A stretch of 64,000 nt of DNA, taken from the IMG/VR virus record IMGVR_UViG_2706795985_000001, positions 1-64,000 of that record; one strand, given 5' to 3'. A model generated the notes under the pieces. It did not search any database. It was not told the origin of the DNA and saw only the letters and a list, made by a program, of their open reading frames with translations. Positions 13,915-61,400 of this stretch are shown here, piece by piece. Numbering within the stretch: the stretch's first letter is position 1; each line of letters begins with the position of its first letter. The translations under genes and the position numbers were made by a program. The stretch is from a virus (taxonomy: Duplodnaviria > Caudoviricetes).

Positions 13915-14355
13915 TTACTCCTTATCCAGTTCTTCTTTAGTTTCTTTAGTTTCTTCAGCCTTCAGCTCTTTCTTCTGAGCAGGTTTCTTGGCTGGAGTCT
14001 TTTCTTTGGTTGGTTCCTCTTTTACAAGTTCCAGTTCAATACTCTTAAGTCCCTTCTCGTCGAAGAAGTGATCACCACCTTCCTTGAAGGTGTAGCCAGC
14101 TTGCACATAGTTCTGTAGGAGCAACATAAACTCCATTGGGTCATAGTGCTCCACCTTGCCGTTAAACCCTTCAGCAACCTCCACAGCGCCTTCTGGCTTA
14201 TCAGCCTTGAACAGCCTGATCACGTTACCGTAACCGCTAAACTGTGGGTAGCCTTCAATAGTATTGCTTACGAAGTAGCCATCTGCCACACCTTCAGAAA
14301 CTTTCTTGACAAAAGTGATAGGACTGTGCTCAACTACATCAATGAAATCGGTCAT
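13915..14355 (-). CDS. Hypothetical protein (start MTDFIDVV)
   Basis: AGGAG RBS; charged low-complexity C-terminus. Confidence 0.7.
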   Translation of the reverse strand: MTDFIDVVEHSPITFVKKVSEGVADGYFVSNTIEGYPQFSGYGNVIRLFKADKPEGAVEVAEGFNGKVEHYDPMEFMLLLQNYVQAGYTFKEGGDHFFDEKGLKSIELELVKEEPTKEKTPAKKPAQKKELKAEETKETKEELDKE

Positions 14356-14387: not shown

Positions 14388-14447
14388 ATATTACCACAAA
14401 ATATAATATTGTCAAGCATTGACTTATGGTGTTCTGGGTGGTAGGAT
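14388..14447. promoter_or_regulatory. Back-to-back sigma70-like promoters
   Basis: Minus: TTGACA(14415-10)-16-TAATAT; plus: TTGACT(14419-24)-17-TAGGAT(14442-47). Confidence 0.7.
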
Positions 14448-14460
14448 GTAAAAGCTGATG

Positions 14461-14747
14461 GAGAGATATGTCTGTAAACACTCACCGGCCATCAGGAACA
14501 CTGCCTATGAAGAGGAAGCTACTGGGCAAGCTGAGTTCTAATCTGGTTAAAGCGTAGCGACGACACCGTAAGGTGGAATGACCAGAGTCTGGTGAGTCTG
14601 AAAGATGACACACCTCCTGCCAATGCAGGCCGAATAGCGATCTCAATCTACATGAGAAGCTTGGAGATAGGACCAAGGTTAAGCCTTAGGCAGACACTGT
14701 TCTGTATGGCTTTCCTTGGGACGGTTCTATCTCCAAAACACGAAACT
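14461..14747 (+). ncRNA. Candidate structured ncRNA, copy A (paralog of 50739-51005)
   Basis: No credible ORF; 14-bp stem 14661-74/14723-36; GNRA hairpin; conserved blocks and covarying helices shared with copy B. Confidence 0.75.
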
Positions 14748-14788
14748 CATCTACATAAGATAAAACATAGTAAATCAAAGGATAATCA

Positions 14789-15355
14789 ATGAAATCTAAA
14801 ATACATGGTGTAGGTATTAATGACTGCACCTACGAGGCATACAAAGGTAAGAATTGTATCTGCCCATACTTCCATGCTTGGAAGGGTCTGCTGTCAAGAC
14901 ATATTGCAAAGGGCGTGCCCGTAGCCGAAGAGTGGTTAACATTCTCCACATTCAAAGGTTGGATGGAAACTCAAGATTGGGAAGGTAAAGAGCTTGACAA
15001 AGACTTACTGGGGCACTACACAATTGGATATACGCCTGCTACATGCTGCTTTCTCCCAAAGGAAGTGAATATCTTTATGCAAGACCGCAGGAAGTCAAAA
15101 TCTGGACTGCCTATCGGCGTCTCGATGAGTCGGCAGGGAAAGTTTAAGGCCTACGCAGACTCTTTTGGAGTCGGAAACTACTTAGGTACATTCAATACAA
15201 AAGAAGAAGCCCACAACTCTTGGAGACTCTTTAAAAACACCCATGCACACAAGCTAGCTGATAGGCTGGAGTCTGAGGGTTATTCCCAGATTGTGTGTAA
15301 TGGCTTAAGAACAAAATATAATGGAGAAAGCTATGAGCCGTTGCAGATGTTGTGA
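14789..15355 (+). CDS. HNH-family homing endonuclease
   Basis: HGVGINDC...WLTFSTFKGW...LDKDLL...YTPATCCFL. Confidence 0.8.
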   Translation: MKSKIHGVGINDCTYEAYKGKNCICPYFHAWKGLLSRHIAKGVPVAEEWLTFSTFKGWMETQDWEGKELDKDLLGHYTIGYTPATCCFLPKEVNIFMQDRRKSKSGLPIGVSMSRQGKFKAYADSFGVGNYLGTFNTKEEAHNSWRLFKNTHAHKLADRLESEGYSQIVCNGLRTKYNGESYEPLQML

Positions 15356-15530
15356 TGTACCGCTAACCAATAATGACACCCCCGGATGGAATAAACTCGC
15401 ACAAGTAGAAGAAGACTTTTGTAGTGTGTGCAGATTTTTAGTATACAACTCTTACACAGAACGAGAGTATGTATGCGGAAGATATCCAACCGACGGAGTT
15501 ACTGGTCCAACGCCAGTTAATGAAAATTAA
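15333..15530 (+). CDS. Small Cys-rich hypothetical protein
   Basis: MSRCRCCD...FCSVC; GGAG RBS. Confidence 0.6.
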   Translation: MSRCRCCDVPLTNNDTPGWNKLAQVEEDFCSVCRFLVYNSYTEREYVCGRYPTDGVTGPTPVNEN

Positions 15531-19579: not shown

Positions 19580-22112
19580 ATGGCTGACGATATGGTCTTT
19601 GACTTGGACCCTAACGTTATCGGGCCAAAGTCTAAAAAGCAGTATGACTTCATGCACAGCGAGGCTGATATTACCGTTTTCGGTGGAGCAGCTGGGGCAG
19701 GCAAGAGTTACCTAGGAGTTATGGATTTCCTGAAACACATTCAATACCCAAAATTCAGGGGTTGTATGGTAAGACGTACAACTCCACAGCTGAAAGGTCC
19801 GGGCGGTCTACAAGAGAAAGCCGAAGAACTTTTCAGATTGATTGATCCAAAAGTAAGATGGCGTGATAAAGAACACCACTTTGCATTCTCCAACGGGGCT
19901 AAGATTTATCTCCGTCACTTCGAAAATCCAAAAGACACTGAGAACTTTCAAGGTTGGGAAGTAAACCACTTTCTAGTCGATGAAGGCCAGCAGTTTGAAG
20001 AGATGATGGTGGAATACCTGACATCTCGTATGCGTAACCCTAAGTGTCCTGAAGTAAAACCCCACATGAAGATCACCTGTAACCCTGACTATGGATCTTT
20101 CCTTCGTCACTGGTTAGAATGGTGGCTTGATCCTGACACAGGAATTCCTATTCCTGAACGTGACAGCAAGATCAGGTACTTCCTAAAGCTTGATGGTAAG
20201 ATGGTTTGGGGTGATACAAAAGAGGAGTTAATCGAGAAGTATGGTAAGCCGCATCTAGCTGCAGATCATCAGAACCAAGTTAAACCCCTCAGCTTTAAAT
20301 TCATTGCAGCTAACGTTAATTAATAGCGTCCTTATACAGAAATGTATATTGAAAACCTTGTTAACTCAGGGGATATCCTAACGTAGAGTCGAGGACAATC
20401 CTGAGCGAAGCTCAGAGCATTCTGAGAACGTGCAACGACTATCGAAACCGCAGAGAAATCTGAAAGGGAGTAGAGTAGGGTCAAGTGACTCGAAAAGCAA
20501 GGCATCCTAACCCAAGGGAAGGATGATGATATAGTCTGGTCTGCATGGAAACATGCAGCAGTTCATAAGAGAACGAGGCACGCCTAACGAGCGTAGCTTG
20601 AACACAACGATATGACAACCCCGTCCTATGTAACGCACAGCCCGAATATGTTGGCTGGCTTGAAGGTCTTGGTAGAGTTGAAAAAGAACGCCTGCTTTAC
20701 GGAAGCTGGCTAGCACGTGCTGAAGGCACAGGCTATTTTAAATCACAATGGTGCAACATGGTTACTCAACGCGACATAGCCTCTGTTAAGCGTGTTCGTG
20801 CATGGGATATCAGCGGCTCCGTTCCTTCTGAAACCAATCGTAACCCTGACTGGACTGCTGGCGTCTTAATGAGCCGTAGTAAGCTTGGGACTTATACAGT
20901 TGAAGATGTTGTCAGAGATCGTAAGCGTCATGGCGGCGTCTTTGAACTAATACTTGAAACTGCTAGGCACGATGGTGATGATGTTCAAATTATCATTCCT
21001 TGCGACCCCGGTGCTGCTGGTAAAGCTTATGCTGCACAGTTAATCCGTGACCTTGCCGATCAAGGTTTCTACGCAAGAATGAAACAAACTAACAAGTCAA
21101 AAGTTACTCGATTTGCCCCCTTTGCAGCCATTGCTGAAGCTGGTAGTGTTGAGATTATTGAGTCAGACTGGACCAAGGACTACCTTCTAGAGCTTGAACG
21201 TTTTGATGGTAGCAAGAATATTAAAGACGATTAACAAACTGGTTGTCTATAAACTCATTGAATTCGGTGAACACCTCCAGCAAATGTTGTAGGCAATACC
21301 GAGCCAAGCCCACGAAGTGGGAAGGTGTAACGACTATTATGTAGCCCTCAAGTGAGGTCGAAGCAGTGAGCAACGGAGACGTTGAAGAGATAGTCTACTC
21401 TGCATAGTGATATGCAGCACTCATAATTTATAGGAGAATTTCTATGGAAAAGTATATTTCTAATGGTGGACATGAATTTGTAATTCTAAGTCAACAAGGC
21501 AAAAATTGTGTAATCCAGTTCACTAACACTGGTTGGGTACGCAAGGCTAATATCGACAACATTAAGGCTGGCAAGGTTAAAGATTTATTTGAACCTTCTG
21601 TCTACGGTGTTGGTTACTACGGAGAATTTGAAAAGAACTCCTATTGGAAGCAGGCAAAACAACTCTGGCAGAATATGCACAAGCGTTGCTATTGTGAGAA
21701 AGACTTGAAAGGTTACTTTGGAGAGGCTTTCGTATCCAGAGACTGGCACTGTTTTTCAAACTTCCTTAGTGATATTAGTAAACTCAAAAACTTTGATCTA
21801 TGGCTTAAAGGCCAAAATGGTGAGAGTTTAAAGTATAACCTTGACAAAGATTTATTGATTGCTGGTTGTAAAGTCTACAGCAAAGAAACTTGCCAATTTG
21901 TAAGTGAGTCTGAAAATAAAGCAGATGGAGCTACAAGGGGCAAGCCATATACCAAGAAAACAAGAGTGGCTAAGGAGTAACGACCCTTGGTTAATATATT
22001 GCAGGTCGATGCAACATCAGACGCTTTCCACGCTTTGTCATCTGAGCAGTATCTTCCAGACTTCTCAGTTCCAACAATGACTCAATCCAATCCATTTGCA
22101 TTTTACAGATAA
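19580..22112 (+). CDS. terL: Terminase large subunit, spliced: 19580-20316 + 20610-21231 + 22002-22112 (489 aa)
   Basis: GGAAGAGKS Walker A, LVDEG Walker B; splicing restores ANVYDNP and KDD|QVDATSDAF nuclease motif. Confidence 0.92.
20317..20609 (+). mobile_element. Group I intron terL-I1 (293 nt, no ORF)
   Basis: P1 ACGU/GCGU with U.G at 5' splice site; GACAATCCTGAGCGAAG, CAACGACTATC, GATATAGTC cores; terminal G20609; joined frame open. Confidence 0.92.
21232..22001 (+). mobile_element. Group I intron terL-I2 (770 nt) carrying an endonuclease ORF
   Basis: P1 GACGAU/GUUGUC; AATACCGAGCCAAG, TAACGACTA, GAGATAGTC; terminal G22001. Confidence 0.92.
21444..21980 (+). CDS. Intron-encoded HNH-type homing endonuclease
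   Basis: VYGVGY...WQNMHKRCY...WHCFSNF...LDKDLL...YSKETCQFV; AGGAG RBS. Confidence 0.85.
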   Translation: MEKYISNGGHEFVILSQQGKNCVIQFTNTGWVRKANIDNIKAGKVKDLFEPSVYGVGYYGEFEKNSYWKQAKQLWQNMHKRCYCEKDLKGYFGEAFVSRDWHCFSNFLSDISKLKNFDLWLKGQNGESLKYNLDKDLLIAGCKVYSKETCQFVSESENKADGATRGKPYTKKTRVAKE

Positions 22113-22120
22113 GGACAATC

Positions 22121-23986
22121 ATGGCCAAGAGAACAAAGATTGAAAAAGTTGCCACTCCGATGCCCCGTCTTCGTCTAGGTGAGATTGGTAGTGTTGGCCT
22201 AAAACAGTATGGCGGCCATGTTGCAGAAGAGCAACGTAGGGAACTTCAGTTTCCAGAGGCTTGCAGAACATTCCGTACAATGGCACAAGATGCCACGATC
22301 AAGTCAGCCATCTCTCTAGTAGAAATGATGATCAGTCGAGTTGACTGGACAATCAACCTTGGTGTTGGACCAGATGCAGCTATGAAGGCCCGTGGTGAAT
22401 TCCTTGAATCTGTAATCCATGATATGGATCATAGCTTTGATGACTTCATCAGAGAAGTGACCAGCATGTACACTTATGGATTTTCTGTTCATGAGAAAGT
22501 TTACCGTCGCAGAACATTTGAAGCTGGGTCTTCCTACAATGACAACAAGATAGGCATCAAGAAGCTACCTGTTCGCTCTCAGGACACGATCTCTCGCTGG
22601 GTATACAGTGATGACGGTAGAGACCTTATAGGTCTAGAACAGAACCTAGCGGGCATTCAGGGCGGAGACAGGTACGCCAACATGGTCAACCTCTCTTCTA
22701 ATGGGATCATTCAGATTCCTAGAAAGAAGTTTATGCTATTTCGTGTAGATGCTAAGCGTGACAACCCTGAGGGTAACAGTCCTCTACGTGGTTGCTATAA
22801 TGCTTGGCTATTCCGTAGGCAGATTGAAGAACAAGAAGCCATTGGTGTTACGCGTTGACTTTAGTCACACACCACTAACAAAAGTGAATAGCGCCTTCAG
22901 TTAGAAATGACTGTCGAATAAATCTCTTAATTGCTGGAAACTCCTTAGAGCCTTGAATACCGAAGTGTGACAATTTCAAGGATTGGACAATCAGCAGCGA
23001 AGCGCATGTGCCCTCCTGAATAACTCAGTAAGGAGTAAGACATATGATAAAATACCCAGAATCAAGAAACACTGGGTACATGCGAACGTTCAACGACTAT
23101 CCCGCAAGGGAGTAGGGCCAAGTGGCTCGAAATAGAGGTCATCCTACTAATGAGGATGGTGATATAGTCTGGTCTTATGTGAGAGCATAAGCAGTAGGTT
23201 TCTGGCATAGAGCTTACGGGTAGTGTCTAACGAGCACTATTGAACAACACGGATATGAACGGTATGCCAACTTTGTATCTTCCTCCACGCTATATGAGCG
23301 AGGATGCTTCTGATAGTGAGAAGGCAATCTTTGAATACTATAAGAACGTCATTCGTAACATCCAAATGAATGAGCAATCTGGTCTTATCTTGCCACAAGC
23401 ATTTGACCCAGAAAGCCGTCAACCACTCTTCAAGTTTGAACTGACTTCCACGCAAGGTGGGAAGATGTATGACACAGACGTAATCATCAAACGCTGGGAT
23501 AACAAAATCCTACAAGTTTTGTTTGCTGATATGTTGAAGATGGGTCAGGACCAAGTTGGATCTTACTCGCTGGCCGGGGCAAAAACAAATATTATGGCGA
23601 TGGCTATTGAAGCCCGTCTTAAAGAGATTCAAGACACCCTCAACAACGATTTGATTCCACAATTGTTTGCACTTAATGGGGAAACCCTGACAGCCAAACA
23701 ACTGCCTAAACTGCAGTATGGTGATCTTGACGAAGTTGACTTGGATGAATTCTCTAAAGCAATCCAACGTATGGGTAGTGTTGGTGCTCTTGAACTTGAC
23801 CGTCCTATGGCGAACAAGATTCGTGAAAGCATTAAAGTTGTGCCTAAGAAAGACGACGAACCAGTTGACAAAGAAGAGATCATGGGAGGCGACAGCCAAG
23901 CAGGTGACGGAATGGCAGCAGGCGGTGGTAATGGTGCTTCGAGTAATGCCTCATCAAGAGACAACGCTGCTGCCAATAACGCATAG
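22121..23986 (+). CDS. Portal protein, spliced: 22121-22855 + 23252-23986 (489 aa)
   Basis: Follows terL; NPEGNSPLRG...EAIGVTR|DMNGMP...QVGSYSL; frames join exactly. Confidence 0.9.
22856..23251 (+). mobile_element. Group I intron in portal gene (396 nt, no ORF)
   Basis: AATTGCTGGAAACTCC, GACAATCAGCAGCGAAG, GTTCAACGACTA, GATATAGTC; terminal G23251. Confidence 0.92.
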
Positions 23987-29540: not shown

Positions 29541-31099
29541 ATGACCGTTCTTACGGATATCATCGAAATTAACATCAGTAGAGAAACTGCTGCTGTTGCT
29601 CAAACAAACTTCAACGTACCTCTGTTCATTTCTGCACACACAAAATTTGCAGAGAGAGCGCGTTCTTACACAAGCCTTCCAGCTGTTGCTAATGATTTTG
29701 ATCCTACAGACTCGGCATACATTGCTGCACAGAAGTTATTCAGCCAAACATTGACTCCGTCTAGAATTGTTATCGGACGTAGACTAGTGCCAAGCTCTAC
29801 TGTAAGCGTCAGCACTGCCGGGGCAGGGACTTACACTGTCACCATCAATGACATACCTTTTGCTTTTGTAGCTACTTCGTCGAACACTTCGATTCAAATC
29901 GCCACAGGACTTAAAGCTTCATATGACGTTACCCCTGTAGCAGGAGTCACTGTCACTGATAAGCTTGACGGAACGCTCACTGTAGCTTCTACAGTCGGGT
30001 ATTCCCTAGAGGTTTCTACAAATCTTAACCAAGCAAACTCGCCTTCTACAGAGTCTTGGGTAACTTCTGTTAACTCTGTAACAACAGTTGATAACTCTTG
30101 GTACGTGCTGACAATTGAATCTCATGCTGAGGCTGACGTTCTTGCAGTGGCTGCTCAAGTGGAAGGTATGAAGAAAGTTTTCGGAACCTCTTCTCAGTCT
30201 ACTGATGTTAAGACTACTTCTACAACAGATACATTCTCAAAGTTGAAAGCTTTGGGCTATCAACGCACTTTCGGTGTCTACTCTGCCACTGCAGATAGTG
30301 AATACCCAGAAGTAGCTTGGGTAGGATACCAGCTAAAAGAACAGCCCGGTTCTAACACATGGGCTTATAAGTCTCTTTCTGGTGTAACTGTAAGCTCACT
30401 GAGCCCAACAGAATCTACCAACGTGTTAAACAAATCTGCATCTACTTATGAAACTGTTGGTGGTCTGAACAGTACAATTGGTGCTAAGATGTTTGGTGGT
30501 GAATGGATCGACGTTATTATCTTTGTTGACTGGCTGGAACAGCGTATGAAAGAACGTCTGTGGAACCGTATGGCCAACAGCAAGAAAATTCCTTACACAG
30601 CAGCAGGCGCTGCAATCATCGAAGCTGAGATCCGTGCTCAGTTGAATGATGGTATTCGTGTAGGTGGTTTGGCTAACAGCCCAGCTCCAACTGTGTCTGT
30701 ACCAGATGTTCTTACCTTGTCCACAAACCTACGTGCTCAACGTGATTGAAGGTATCACCTTTTTCAAGCTAGACTAGCCGGTGCGATACATTTTGTGAAG
30801 ATATCAGGAACCGTTAATTAAAAGTGGCGGCTTTGTGGTGTGAACTACATCGAATAACTTATCTAATTCGGGGGATATCCTAACGTAGAGTCGAGGACAA
30901 TCCTGAGCGAAGCTCAGAGCATTCTGAGAACGTGCAACGACTATCCCGCAAGGGAGTAGGGCCAAGTGGCTCGAAATGGTAAGGGGCTTCCAATTTAAGG
31001 AAGTTCGTGATATAGTCTATTCTGCATGGAAACATGCAGCAGTTCATAAGAGAACGAGTGTTGTCTAACGAGCAACGTTGAATGTAAAGAACAGTATAA
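29541..31099 (+). CDS. Tail sheath protein, spliced 29541-30814 + 31090-31099 (427 codons; in-frame TGA at 30747 in this assembly)
   Basis: Sheath-like sequence (W.YK.LSGV, WIDVIIFVDWL); conserved-looking end QARLAGAIHFVKISGTV|TV lies in the same frame past the TGA. Confidence 0.85.
30815..31089 (+). mobile_element. Group I intron in sheath gene (275 nt, no ORF)
   Basis: P1 CCGU/GCGG; core blocks identical to terL-I1 and portal introns; terminal G31089; splicing gives GT|A ACA GTA TAA. Confidence 0.88.
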
Positions 31100-31112
31100 T
31101 TACGGAGACAGT

Positions 31113-31829
31113 ATGATAAATTACCTGTACAAGATTACTAACAAAGTTAATGGCAAGACTTACATTGGTATAACCAGAGACCCAGACTCAAGGAGAAAGC
31201 AACACCTTGTGTGGAAGCGTCAGTCTTCAAACTCTATTCTAAAACTCGCTATTGATAAGTATGGAAAAGATGCCTTTGAATTTGAGATTCTTGTTGCAGG
31301 TGATTTATCTTACATAAAAGATTTAGAGATTAAAGCTATTTTAGCCTATGACTCTCTAGCTGGCATTGGACATGGCTACAATATCCACTCAGGTGGTGGT
31401 CATAATAATGGCGGCGAACAAATAAAGTATCGTTCCGACGATAAACCAGTCTGCGCCTTTGGTTTCTGGTTTCCCAACGCCCGCACTGCCATCAAGTCTA
31501 TTGGCATTAACAAGAAGACTCTGTATGCCCGTAGGGCAGCGGGAACTCTACACCTTGAAGCTAGACCACTTAAAGCTATCGAACGCCCAAAGCGAGGCTC
31601 TGAGGAAGACACAGCTAATAGGTCAGCCTCTATGAAAGGTAAAAACTCTGGAGAGCGTAATGGTATGTTCGGAAGAAAGAATCCTTCACGCCACAGAGCA
31701 GTTACAGTGGAAGGTGTGCAGTACGAGTCAATCTCTGATGCAGTCAATAACACCGAATACACAAAATCTCAAATCGAAAAACGTCTAGCCAAAGGTGTAG
31801 ACGGATTCTCATACACACAGAGGAATTAA
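31113..31829 (+). CDS. Free-standing GIY-YIG homing endonuclease
   Basis: YLYKITNKVNGKTYIGIT...R.KQH...E...GYNI; helical DNA-binding C-terminus. Confidence 0.88.
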   Translation: MINYLYKITNKVNGKTYIGITRDPDSRRKQHLVWKRQSSNSILKLAIDKYGKDAFEFEILVAGDLSYIKDLEIKAILAYDSLAGIGHGYNIHSGGGHNNGGEQIKYRSDDKPVCAFGFWFPNARTAIKSIGINKKTLYARRAAGTLHLEARPLKAIERPKRGSEEDTANRSASMKGKNSGERNGMFGRKNPSRHRAVTVEGVQYESISDAVNNTEYTKSQIEKRLAKGVDGFSYTQRN

Positions 31830-50664: not shown

Positions 50665-50725
50665 AGTCTACAGGATCAAGAAACCTTGTCAACAGGCTTG
50701 ACAGAAATATTTTCCATGGTAGACT
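50665..50725. promoter_or_regulatory. Back-to-back sigma70-like promoters
   Basis: Minus TTGACA(about 50692-87)-16-TAGACT; plus TTGACA(50698)-16-TAGACT(50720-25). Confidence 0.65.
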
Positions 50726-50738
50726 TAACCACATCGCA

Positions 50739-51005
50739 GAGAGATATGTCGAGCTAACGCTTCCCTCACCGTCCTGCGGGTGTACCGTCCTATGAAGAGT
50801 TTGCTGCTGGGACAGCTGAGGTTGAATGAGAGAACAGCGCAGTGATGACCCTTTATAGGGGAAGGCTCTCAATCTATAGCGTCCCATGACGCCGACTTGC
50901 GATCTGAGTTTTGGATAGCTTAGGAGATAGACCACAAGGCACGTCTTAGGCTGTTAACTCAGTATGGCGAGCCTTGGGATAGGTTTATCTCGACAATACG
51001 AAACT
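50739..51005 (+). ncRNA. Candidate structured ncRNA, copy B (paralog of 14461-14747)
   Basis: Shares GAGAGATATGTC, CCTATGAAGAG, GCTGAG, GCGATCT, GTATGGC, CGAAACT in order; covarying stems. Confidence 0.75.
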
Positions 51006-51024
51006 GGTTTTGGATAGGGGCAAT

Positions 51025-58433: not shown

Positions 58434-61400
58434 ATGAAGCAGATTACAAACTGGAAGCAGGCAAGCATTGCTGACTTCGAAGCAGACGGGCTTCTTGATA
58501 CAGTTACAAAGATGCACGTAATGAGCTATCAGATTCGCGAGATGAACGGGGATCTATCTAAGGTTTTTACCATTCGACGCGACCACAAGAACTACAAAGA
58601 ACGTGTTGCTAAATTCTTCCAGTATCATATCGACAGGGGTATTCCCGTTGTTATGCACAACGGTATCGGGTACGACGTTCGTATGGTTGAGGAGATTCTG
58701 GAGATTGACCTATCAGGTTTGATGGTTGTTGATACATTAGCTTTGTCATGGTATCTATCGCCTGATCGACACCAGCATGGTCTGGATAGTTTCTTTGAGG
58801 ACTACGGTATTGCCAAGCCTGCTATTGCACACTGGGAACAACAAGAGGGTGAAACCCTTGAAGAGTTTCTTGACACTATGGAACATCGTTGCTCTGAGGA
58901 CGTTAAGATCAACACAGCTTTGTGGGAAGACCACATGGCACGTCTGGTAGACATGTACACAACTGCTCAGGGCTTGATTGACAATGGGCAAGAGATTAAG
59001 GACAAGCGTGGAGATGTTGAGAAGGTTATCAACGTTGGTGGTACTCGCATCTCGCCTGACGAGTGGATTCCCATTGACGATATGATTGGTCGTACTGTCG
59101 ATTCAGCTATTGACTCCATTCTGACGTTCCTGATGTTCAAGATGGACTGTGCCTGCCTGCAAGAGAAGACTCGCTGGGAATTGGATGTTGAACATGTCCG
59201 AAATTCTCTTGAGAAGCTTGAAGAGATTGTACTGGCAGCACGCACCGGCTTATCAGAAGTTATGCCAGTGGTGCCTAAATATGTCAAGAAGACAGAGCCA
59301 AAGATTGACCCATTCAAGAAAAATGGTGAGAGGACCGCACATTGGATCAAATGGGATGAGACCATGCGGAAGTTGGAAGATGGTGAGAAAGACCCTGAGT
59401 CTGGTGCACCACTGGTCTACATCGACCCTGATGATTTACCTCTAGAGGGTAAGCAGGTTTACCGTGTATGGAATAAGAATGAAGAACCAAATCCCGGTAG
59501 TCCAGTTCAAGTAAAGGACTTCCTGTTCAGCAAGGGTTGGGTGCCACAGTCATTTAAGTACGAGAAGGACGAAGTAGCTTTCAATGCGTGGATCGCCAGC
59601 AAGCCCCAAGGTAAGGCAAATCACCAGCAATGGGAACGTTGGAAAAACGCCAGACCAGAAGAACGTGCAATACCTCAAATCTCGGTTGGTGGTGATGACG
59701 GTAAAGAGCTGTGCCACTCTCTGATTGATCTGGCTGAAGAGGTCCCTGCGATTAAGGTTTATGCTGACTACAAGGTGGCTGAAAACCGTCGTAACGTGCT
59801 TCTGGGGTTCTTCAGAGACATGGAAGATGGGAAGTGGTTGAAGGCTCGTATTGGTGGTTTCACTAACACCCTTAGAGTTAAACACCGTGAGCTGGTAAAC
59901 CTTCCGGGCGTTGACAAGCCTTATGGCTATGATATCCGAGGTGGGTTAATTTCAGGATTCAAAAAGATTCTTGCTGGGTCGGACATGTCTTCTCTTGAAG
60001 ATCGTGTGAAGCACCACTTCATGCTGCCGCATGACCCTGAGTATGTTAAGACCATGCAAGCTGATGGTTTTGACCCTCACATTCTGATGGCACTCACGGC
60101 TGGGATGATTTCTCAAGCTGAGTTTGAAGCGTTCATGGCTGACCCGAAAGGTAGTCACCCGCCGCACGTTAAGAAAGGTCGTAAGGACGGCAAGACTTGT
60201 TTGCCAGTTGACAGTACAGAAGTCTTGACACGTCGAGGGTGGCTGCTTGGCAGCGAGGTGGGTATTGGAGACTATGTTATGTCTTTGGGCACTGAGACAA
60301 ATACGCTTGAGTGGTGTAGAGTTACAGACACCCTGTTGTTTAAGGGCCAGAAGACGGTTGTTATGAAAAACAATAACTGGGAACTAGAGTCAACCCCAGA
60401 TCACAAATGGGTTGTAGATAGGACCACAGGCAGAGGGTCTACACGAAGAGTCGTACGGGAGTGGGTGTCTACTGAAAAGCTGAATAAGGCTATGAATATT
60501 GTCACAACGGCAGCTTATGTTGGAGGCACTTCCGGCGTCACTGTTGCACAAGCTCGTGTTGTTGGTTGGATGCTGGCGGACGGCAGTCTGTCTGTCTCCC
60601 CGTTGACTTGTAAAACGTCTCAAGGTTTGTCCGGACACAAGCAAGCCGTACGGATGACAATCGCCCAGGCTAAGTTTTACGAGGAGGTAAAGGAAGATAT
60701 CGAAGCTGTTGGTTTGGACTACTCAGAGTACAAGAATTCCTGCAATGTGCCTGTGTTCCAGTTTAAATCCAACAGTGCGCGTGACTTCCTAAAGGACGTA
60801 GGGCTGCCACTGGAGGGCAAGCATAAAATTGACTACAGCCTGTGGGTCTCTGGGCTTAGCAGGGAGGCTTTGTCTGGATTCTACGATGCGTTTTGGAGGG
60901 CTGACGGAAATACTGCTTCGCCCGATAAAACTTACAAAACAAGCATTGTCTACCAAAATTCAGGTAATATTGCAGACGCTGTGCAGTTGGTAAGCATTCT
61001 TTTGGGTAAAAACACATTTAAGAAGTTTAATAAAAAAGGTTATGGAGTGGTAAGGTCACAAGACCGTAGTAGTGTGACAATGCAACGAGTAGAGAAGACA
61101 GAGGGAAGGGTTGTAGATGTTTTCTGCTTGACAACTGAGAACACTAGTTTCTTGATCCGACAGAATGGGTTTGTGACAATCACTGGCAACTGTAACTATG
61201 CTTCCGTGTACAATGCGGGTGCTGCTAAGATTGCACAGGCAGCAGGCCAGAGTCTAGCTACAGGTGAGAAGCTGCACAAGGCGTACTGGGAGCTAAACTG
61301 GTCTGTAAAAGCCATTGCTGAAGAGCAGGTGGTGTTTAAGGATAGTCGTGGTGACAAGTGGCTGATCAACCCTATCAACGGGTTCTGCTACAGCCTGCGT

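Follow-up and report, generated by a model that had tools for sequence, protein, structure and literature searches.

The DNA between a sigma-70 promoter and an HNH endonuclease gene in this phage genome holds a non-coding block whose product raises a simple question: is it the RNA partner of the neighbouring nuclease, or an RNA with a task of its own? The window, i.e. the whole stretch of 64,000 nt that was analysed, comprises the first 64 kb of a virus record of 90.5 kb. Both RNA loci in it are 99.7% identical to those of the Pseudomonas phage vB_PsyM_KIL2 (Flaumdravirus), and the window is that of a KIL-like Pseudomonas myovirus. The two blocks of the preliminary description were both found, with their shared motifs aligning in the order described, and were designated copy A and its paralog copy B (Table 1). 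Each copy starts 7-10 nt past a sigma-70 promoter, that of copy A being where it had been predicted, with a divergent promoter alongside, and both are located at points where the gene strand switches. The folding of copy A was better than that of all 100 shuffled sequences (z -3.1), and for copy B the comparison with shuffles gave a z of -2.0.

Table 1. Positions of the RNA copies, their predicted parts and the neighbouring features in the window
Feature	Position	Strand	Remark
Divergent partner promoter of copy A	14388-14415	-	
Copy A promoter, sigma-70 type	14419-14447	+	Same layout in relatives
RNA copy A, P1 to self-target end	14455-14759	+	~305 nt; predicted ends
5' module: helix P1 around conserved GAGAUAUGUC (14463-72) and CUCACCG (14481-87)	14455-14495	+	
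P2 (14503-06/14524-27), GAAGA loop, pseudoknot, conserved CUGA (14531-34)	14503-14558	+	
P3 around P4 (14564-75)	14542-14586	+	
P5 hairpin, NCAU loop	14616-14629	+	
Terminal arm P6/P7/P8	14663-14734	+	
Putative guide segment S1'	14535-14538	+	Same sense as 14724-27
Putative guide segment GNNR'	14559-14562	+	Same sense as 14720-23, bulged from terminal stem
Putative guide segment S2'	14587-14589	+	Same sense as 14729-31
Putative guide segment S3' and conserved spacer with extra A	14630-14645	+	Same sense as about 14735-48
Putative free guide R1, 11 nt	14646-14656	+	Same sense as 14749-59
Predicted target: template strand, last 40 bp of element	14720-14759	-	From sequence comparison
AT-rich tract (80% AT) and ribosome binding site	14760-14789	+	Directly past target
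Free-standing HNH homing-type endonuclease	14789-15355	+	Lineage-specific insertion, outside RNA system
Small Zn-ribbon gene	15321-15530	+	Normally directly behind copy A in relatives
Copy B promoter, sigma-70 type	50698-50725	+	
RNA copy B	50732-51017	+	Paralog of copy A
Putative copy B guides	50820-23, 50844-47, 50872-74, 50893-50907; R1 50908-18	+	
Predicted copy B target	50978-51017		
Truncated GIY-YIG endonuclease stub, ~46 aa	51026-51165	+	Lineage-specific

A covariance-model search of Rfam 15, which includes HEARO, ROOL, GOLLD, group I and II introns, RNase P, tmRNA and riboswitches, gave nothing at the gathering score for either copy, and with permissive filters only chance matches were obtained at the two loci. 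Rfam did find tRNAs and four group I introns in the window, all of them away from the RNA copies, and ARAGORN reported nothing at the RNA element. No description of the RNA was found in a literature search; an anonymous entry is possible in the supplements of the PAK_P4 transcriptome paper or in those of a catalogue of viral structured RNAs (PMC10690425). The record of phage PAK_P4 annotates one small RNA 2.5 kb off, the RNA site itself being unannotated. The initial view of a structured RNA outside the assigned families, with a paralog, was thus borne out, and we concluded that the folded RNA is real, apparently undescribed, and common to many bacterial viruses.

BLAST found copy A in 178 phage records. 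To collect homologs, viral, metagenome and genome collections were scanned with a sequence pattern and the hits were filtered with a profile, which yielded ~130 real loci, some 90 of them non-redundant; a second pattern added ten loci with a diverged 5' module, giving a total of about 140 homologs. Since the search was driven by patterns, the family is probably larger. The homologs range in size from 270 to 310 nt and are of two types. The long type occurs in Pakpunavirus, Otagovirus, Flaumdravirus and kin with two copies per genome, copy A preceding the tRNA and structural region and copy B the DNA-metabolism region. The short type occurs as a single copy in marine and freshwater phages of 35-50 kb, including seven Vibrio isolates. 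Matches in bacterial genomes are few, and those inspected sit amid phage-type genes. In a tree the B copies, that of PAK_P4 included, form one lineage, which indicates that the A/B duplication is old. Phage PAK_P3 has no RNA anywhere in its genome, although the genes flanking site A are conserved. A recent mobile element was considered and, despite this empty syntenic site, rejected, because the tree gives old A and B lineages.

Several observations concern the margins of the family. In the very diverged members L253, L054, L212 and L210 only the 5' module is recognisable; L253 apparently lacks a self-guide and has a terminator-like hairpin at its end. Upstream of P1, at a distance of ~20-60 nt, five short-type members (L218, L231, L257, L292, L331) carry an additional small hairpin with a UUCUCCGA-like loop; a TTAAA motif precedes this hairpin, which may represent an extended 5' end or a promoter specific to the phage. 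In L024, L068, L081 and L309 a long stem with a ~60-nt loop and a U-tract end, resembling a terminator, lies 10-130 nt upstream of P1, and no sigma-70 promoter was found between this stem and the RNA.

The gene at 14789 had been taken for an HNH nuclease, and its 188-aa product indeed matches phrog_953 (9e-70). It had further been stated that each copy sits 5' of a nuclease gene; this holds in the KIL-like genome, with copy B followed by a stub only, and fails in ten annotated close relatives, none of which has a nuclease behind copy A or B. Judged by gene order, the HNH gene is inserted between the RNA and the usual Zn-ribbon gene. Across the homologs different genes follow the RNA (Zn-ribbon protein, DUF4326, helicase, methylase, terminase), and when these were tabulated, nuclease genes of several unrelated homing-type families were found in about 1/6 of the contexts, so that a general nuclease link was not upheld. 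That a minority of homologs carry nucleases of unrelated families suggests that a conserved site was invaded repeatedly; the nuclease gene next to the RNA appears incidental, selfish genes having landed behind it. That the RNA is a nuclease-associated, HEARO/omega-RNA-like partner of the HNH protein is in our view extremely improbable: nuclease genes do follow both copies in the window and a minority of homologs, but the close relatives do without them, the families are unrelated, that of copy B is a remnant, and the 188-aa protein is an ordinary homing HNH enzyme related to another one in the window. Likeness to HEARO/omega-RNA-IscB, a structured RNA 5' of an HNH gene, is confined to the KIL-like genome, and there is no Rfam match, no protein of IscB size and no linkage across homologs. 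The genome is rich in homing endonucleases. Its four group I introns (at 20307, 21195, 22876 and 30806) are situated within or next to the terminase, portal and tail-sheath genes (19580-23191 and 29541-31829), with HNH and GIY-YIG homing endonuclease genes near them.

In an alignment of 40 long-type sequences, two-sided changes were observed in P1, P2, the P2-loop pseudoknot, P3, P4, P5 and P8, far exceeding those in shuffled and slid controls. The covarying helices proposed earlier that correspond to P3, P4 and P5 were confirmed, with 6/6, 3/4 and 5/5 pairs changing on both sides. The proposed terminal stem is backed by mutual information and is out of register in the 40-sequence alignment (51% paired). 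Two other elements were discarded. The ACTCA/TGAGT helix has only three invariant pairs, which are broken in diverged members, and the base after CUGA tracks the 3' end of the RNA, not this pairing. The suggested pseudoknot AGAA/TTCT versus CTGAGTT/AACTCAG is absent; the actual one pairs 14518-22 with 14554-58, and 5/5 of its pairs covary. The 5' module is variable in distant members, and the short type retains P2-P4, with two loops forming a kissing contact. The P5 loop likely docks on GUAUGGC (14704-10), because both are kept or lost together among the sequences compared. In copy B of phiPsa374 (59,850-60,110), P5 is lost and GUAUGGC altered together, and the self-guide is retained.

The feature that sets this RNA apart, which the preliminary description had overlooked, is found in its last ~40 nt, which are a same-sense mosaic of five segments scattered in the 5' fold (4+4+3+~6+11 nt). 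Their order at the 3' end is GNNR, S1, S2, S3, spacer and 11-mer; within the fold, their counterparts precede P4 and follow CUGA, P3 and P5. The guide sequence is unconstrained among phages, yet it is matched inside every copy. Identity of R1/R2 (R1 and its match in the target) is 0.95-0.98 at positions 3-8 and 0.61-0.85 at the edges, falling to background from position 12, so the matching ends after 11 nt; between members it is 0.25-0.42. These pairs were taken at >=7/9 matches, which inflates the identity; 33 of the 36 distinct 6-nt cores are identical, and an unanchored search recovered the same pairs in most full-length members. For the other guide segments the self identity is 0.64-0.99 versus a cross identity of 0.44-0.70, and mutual information revealed further same-letter columns. 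The self-match also holds in the later-found JG004 B, SYP, phiPsa374 B, Vibrio 1.108.O and ten marine copies. In L036 and L263 a short insertion past R1 holds a third partial copy of the spacer and repeat.

Most mismatches are guide G/target A, which would be G-T wobbles if the guide paired with the minus strand of the target; wobble-compatible mismatches were 51:11 inside versus 94:54 outside the matched region (Fisher p=0.009, relatedness ignored), and 10:1 in the core (relatedness likewise ignored). No complement of GNNR, S3 or the 11-mer was found within the RNA, nor any complement of the 11-mer R1 elsewhere in the genome. S1' would form 51 Watson-Crick and 1 GU pairs with the template, versus 45 Watson-Crick pairs, 3 GU pairs and 4 mismatches with its cage inside the RNA. 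Taken together, the same-sense match, the mismatch bias and the absence of RNA complements suggest that the RNA most likely forms an R-loop in cis, its partner being the template strand from which its own 3' end is copied; we have considerable confidence in this reading. In L024, L039 and L068 the RNA-like strand carries G-runs after the AT-rich tract downstream of the target; these would favour extension of an R-loop.

We regard it as rather improbable that the segments instead pair with another complementary strand, such as an antisense RNA or an RNA-templated product, or are merely homogenised by mutation, the RNA being an ordinary sRNA or scaffold. PAK_P4 makes many antisense RNAs (PMC5563952), S1 and S2 are also explicable by alternative pairing with the terminal stem, and the directional mismatch bias is modest once base composition is allowed for. 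On the other hand, slippage cannot account for the dispersal and the fixed bulges of the five segments; moreover, a full antisense RNA would pair with the 3' end directly and would not need a mosaic, and the genome holds no separate complement. A rolling reverse-transcription template of the DRT2 kind was rejected, as the mismatch bias is opposite and no reverse transcriptase is present among the annotated neighbours.

GNNR and S1 adjoin each other in the target, and the segments that match them are far apart in the RNA, both next to its most conserved bases. This arrangement, and a 5' motif resembling the J8/7-P7 strand of group I introns, would fit a ribozyme that nicks or joins the captured minus strand between 14723 and 14724, with the invariant core placed around the GNNR'-to-S1' crossing like exon-binding sites flanking a splice site. 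We hold such a ribozyme to be improbable: there is neither a group I or II core nor an Rfam score, distant members differ in the 5' motif, and the A and B copies are old vertical lineages, which give no sign of recent mobility. The likeness to group I introns is limited to that one 10-nt motif; no other core element is present, and the RNA is intergenic in all annotated relatives, interrupting no gene. A permuted group I intron was rejected for the same reason, the single resembling motif being itself variable.

If the RNA is anchored to its own template, what could it do? The balance tips slightly towards an RNA-only device, in which a five-part reprogrammable guide would capture ~30 bp of its own template by a strand swap during transcription, and the resulting R-loop would control the host polymerase, in the manner of a promoter or antiterminator made of RNA, or cut or prime the DNA. 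As to its function, we tentatively favour, at somewhat less than an even chance, a cis-acting leader RNA whose split self-guide switches on or sustains transcription of the downstream operon. The host RNA polymerase would make the leader RNA, which would fold a split guide for the template strand at its own 3' end; the 5' strand of the terminal arm (14663-73) could cage S1' and S2' until the 3' strand is made. As the polymerase crosses the last 40 bp, the nascent 3' strand would zip onto the terminal stem and free the guides. At the trailing edge of the bubble these would then hybridise to the template strand, giving a discontinuous RNA-DNA hybrid of ~30 bp and displacing the coding strand. 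Between the end of the terminal stem and the 11-mer lie 12-18 nt, approximately the length hidden by the polymerase, and the caged segments would therefore be freed as the template emerges. Such a strand swap would be energy-neutral and coupled to transcription. The segments do not exceed about one helical turn, as a loop-held guide acting on closed DNA would require, and the 11-nt ceiling would suit one helical turn and the polymerase hybrid alike. The anchored RNA might then hold the elongation complex while the conserved core modifies the polymerase for read-through, as lambda Q and HK022 put do; or it might hold the bubble open beside the AT-rich tract, where polymerase would reload. Either way, no protein activator would be required to switch the operon. 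Strand-displacement loops made by peptide nucleic acid, which act as promoters, and RNA-guided sigma factors offer analogies.

The genomic position of the element is consistent with a leader. It heads long co-oriented gene arrays in KIL and five small phages, and a ribosome site and start codon lie <=80 nt downstream in 50 of 60 cases, mostly with no intervening promoter. Promoters are not enriched downstream of the RNA. In Vibrio 1.108.O the order is promoter, RNA, strong terminator and terminase, following the nin region, and no promoter match was found after the terminator. In 5 genomes, of which two are incomplete, neither PF06530 nor PF03589 detected a Q protein, while the positive controls did give matches. 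The slot occupied by Q in lambda corresponds in Vibrio 1.108.O to a 675-bp unannotated gap with hairpins after ninG (30,681-31,356; L398:2683-3356). Other findings argue against a transcriptional role. Few strong intrinsic terminators were found behind the RNA (2 in 104 kb); additional sigma-70 promoters follow both copies in the KIL and PAK phages; and PAK_P3 has a similar transcription programme without the RNA. An RNA anchored to its own gene is also hard to square with one riding on the polymerase.

The opposite effect on transcription, attenuation, would arise if invasion by the guide stripped the nascent 3' end from its 9-11 bp hybrid and released the ~300-nt RNA, with read-through only when a phage factor intervened. 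The 11-nt limit equals the length of the polymerase hybrid, reported as 11 nt (PMC9378689), and some marine members have a terminal stem with a U-rich tail. We consider an attenuator highly improbable, since downstream genes usually have no promoter of their own (6/70 versus a background of 4%) and no conserved candidate for an activator lies next to the RNA.

The same self-targeted R-loop could instead serve as a replication origin, which we judge unlikely on the whole and yet the most serious alternative to the leader. In ColE1 RNA II a G-tract pairs with a C-tract. By analogy, the persistent hybrid would be cut within or after R1 by RNase H or a phage 5' nuclease, and the 3' end would prime rightward synthesis; anchoring of a same-sense tract to the template strand is the ColE1 mechanism, with its R-loop and RNase H step (PMC5935869). 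The 30 nt past the target are AT-rich (+0.13 versus +0.04 in other pre-RBS windows, p=1e-11), the genome reaches its GC-skew minimum at 14304, beside copy A, helicase genes adjoin the RNA in several marine phages, and KIL encodes a T7-like primase-helicase and polymerase. In PAK_P3, no other part of the genome is as AT-rich as the empty syntenic site. There, at 84,286-84,417 (L526:2287-2418), an 83% AT palindromic tract and a G-rich hairpin lie where relatives carry the RNA, and the hairpin recurs at about 62,627; the tract and hairpin are possibly an origin or a substitute element. The skew minimum, however, coincides with the gene-strand switch, which explains the skew, and both GC skew and four-fold-site skew are confounded as tests of an origin. 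Moreover, the skew at four-fold sites shows no origin gradient, no inflection accompanies the RNA where it is not located at a strand switch, an O-like initiator and a primase-helicase are encoded at another locus in Vibrio 1.108.O, and a ribosome site directly follows the RNA in most members.

Comparison with known systems does not place the RNA in an existing class. It resembles ColE1/pMB1 RNA II in being a promoter-driven structured RNA that, by comparative evidence, would hybridise in cis to its own template strand through same-sense sequence, close to the 3' part of the transcript. Whereas RNA II uses a single G-tract and becomes a primer by anchoring, the phage RNA has five dispersed, sequence-free guides over ~40 nt, no antisense RNA I (no Rfam RNAI match) and a gene that follows at once; no ColE1 sequence similarity was found, and a plasmid search with one marine member gave no match. 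Short loop-held guides of up to about one turn, of which some share the sense of the DNA that they specify, are also a feature of the IS110 bridge RNA and IS1111 seekRNA. Unlike these, the phage RNA has no adjacent recombinase, would read one strand only and would target its own 3' end; it shows no insertion-sequence behaviour and no conserved neighbour gene, and its A and B lineages are old. Like HK022 putL/putR, which occur where no protein antiterminator has been detected (PMC9378689), it comes as two related, promoter-proximal cis RNAs per genome that stand first in long operons. The put RNAs are ~70 nt with two stems, bind the beta-prime zinc domain and have no known template pairing, whereas the phage RNA is 270-310 nt, contains a pseudoknot and a self-guide, and lacks the two-stem fold. 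The lambda pR'-qut-tR' region occupies the same slot, between the nin region and terminase, as the RNA of Vibrio 1.108.O and several marine phages; here, in contrast to lambda late control, no Q was found, the element is an RNA structure, and in other phages it heads an early/middle operon. The phage RNA would capture its template like ColE1 RNA II and sits like put or qut, and fits none of the classes compared.

To our knowledge, every natural system of RNA-guided DNA targeting depends on a protein (Cas, IscB/TnpB, IS110). The comparative signal described here points to an RNA that would read DNA unaided through a split, sequence-free guide and that, if true, would represent a natural RNA-only DNA-targeting module. 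The RNA is present in therapy-relevant phages, with over 120 Pakpunavirus records, and we know of no explanation for the transcription timing and origin of phages of this type. Judged from its sequence and position, the RNA probably switches on the genes that follow it or starts DNA copying. Should its task be to activate transcription or prime replication, the RNA may be reprogrammable; a DNA-cutting activity would make it a new ribozyme class.
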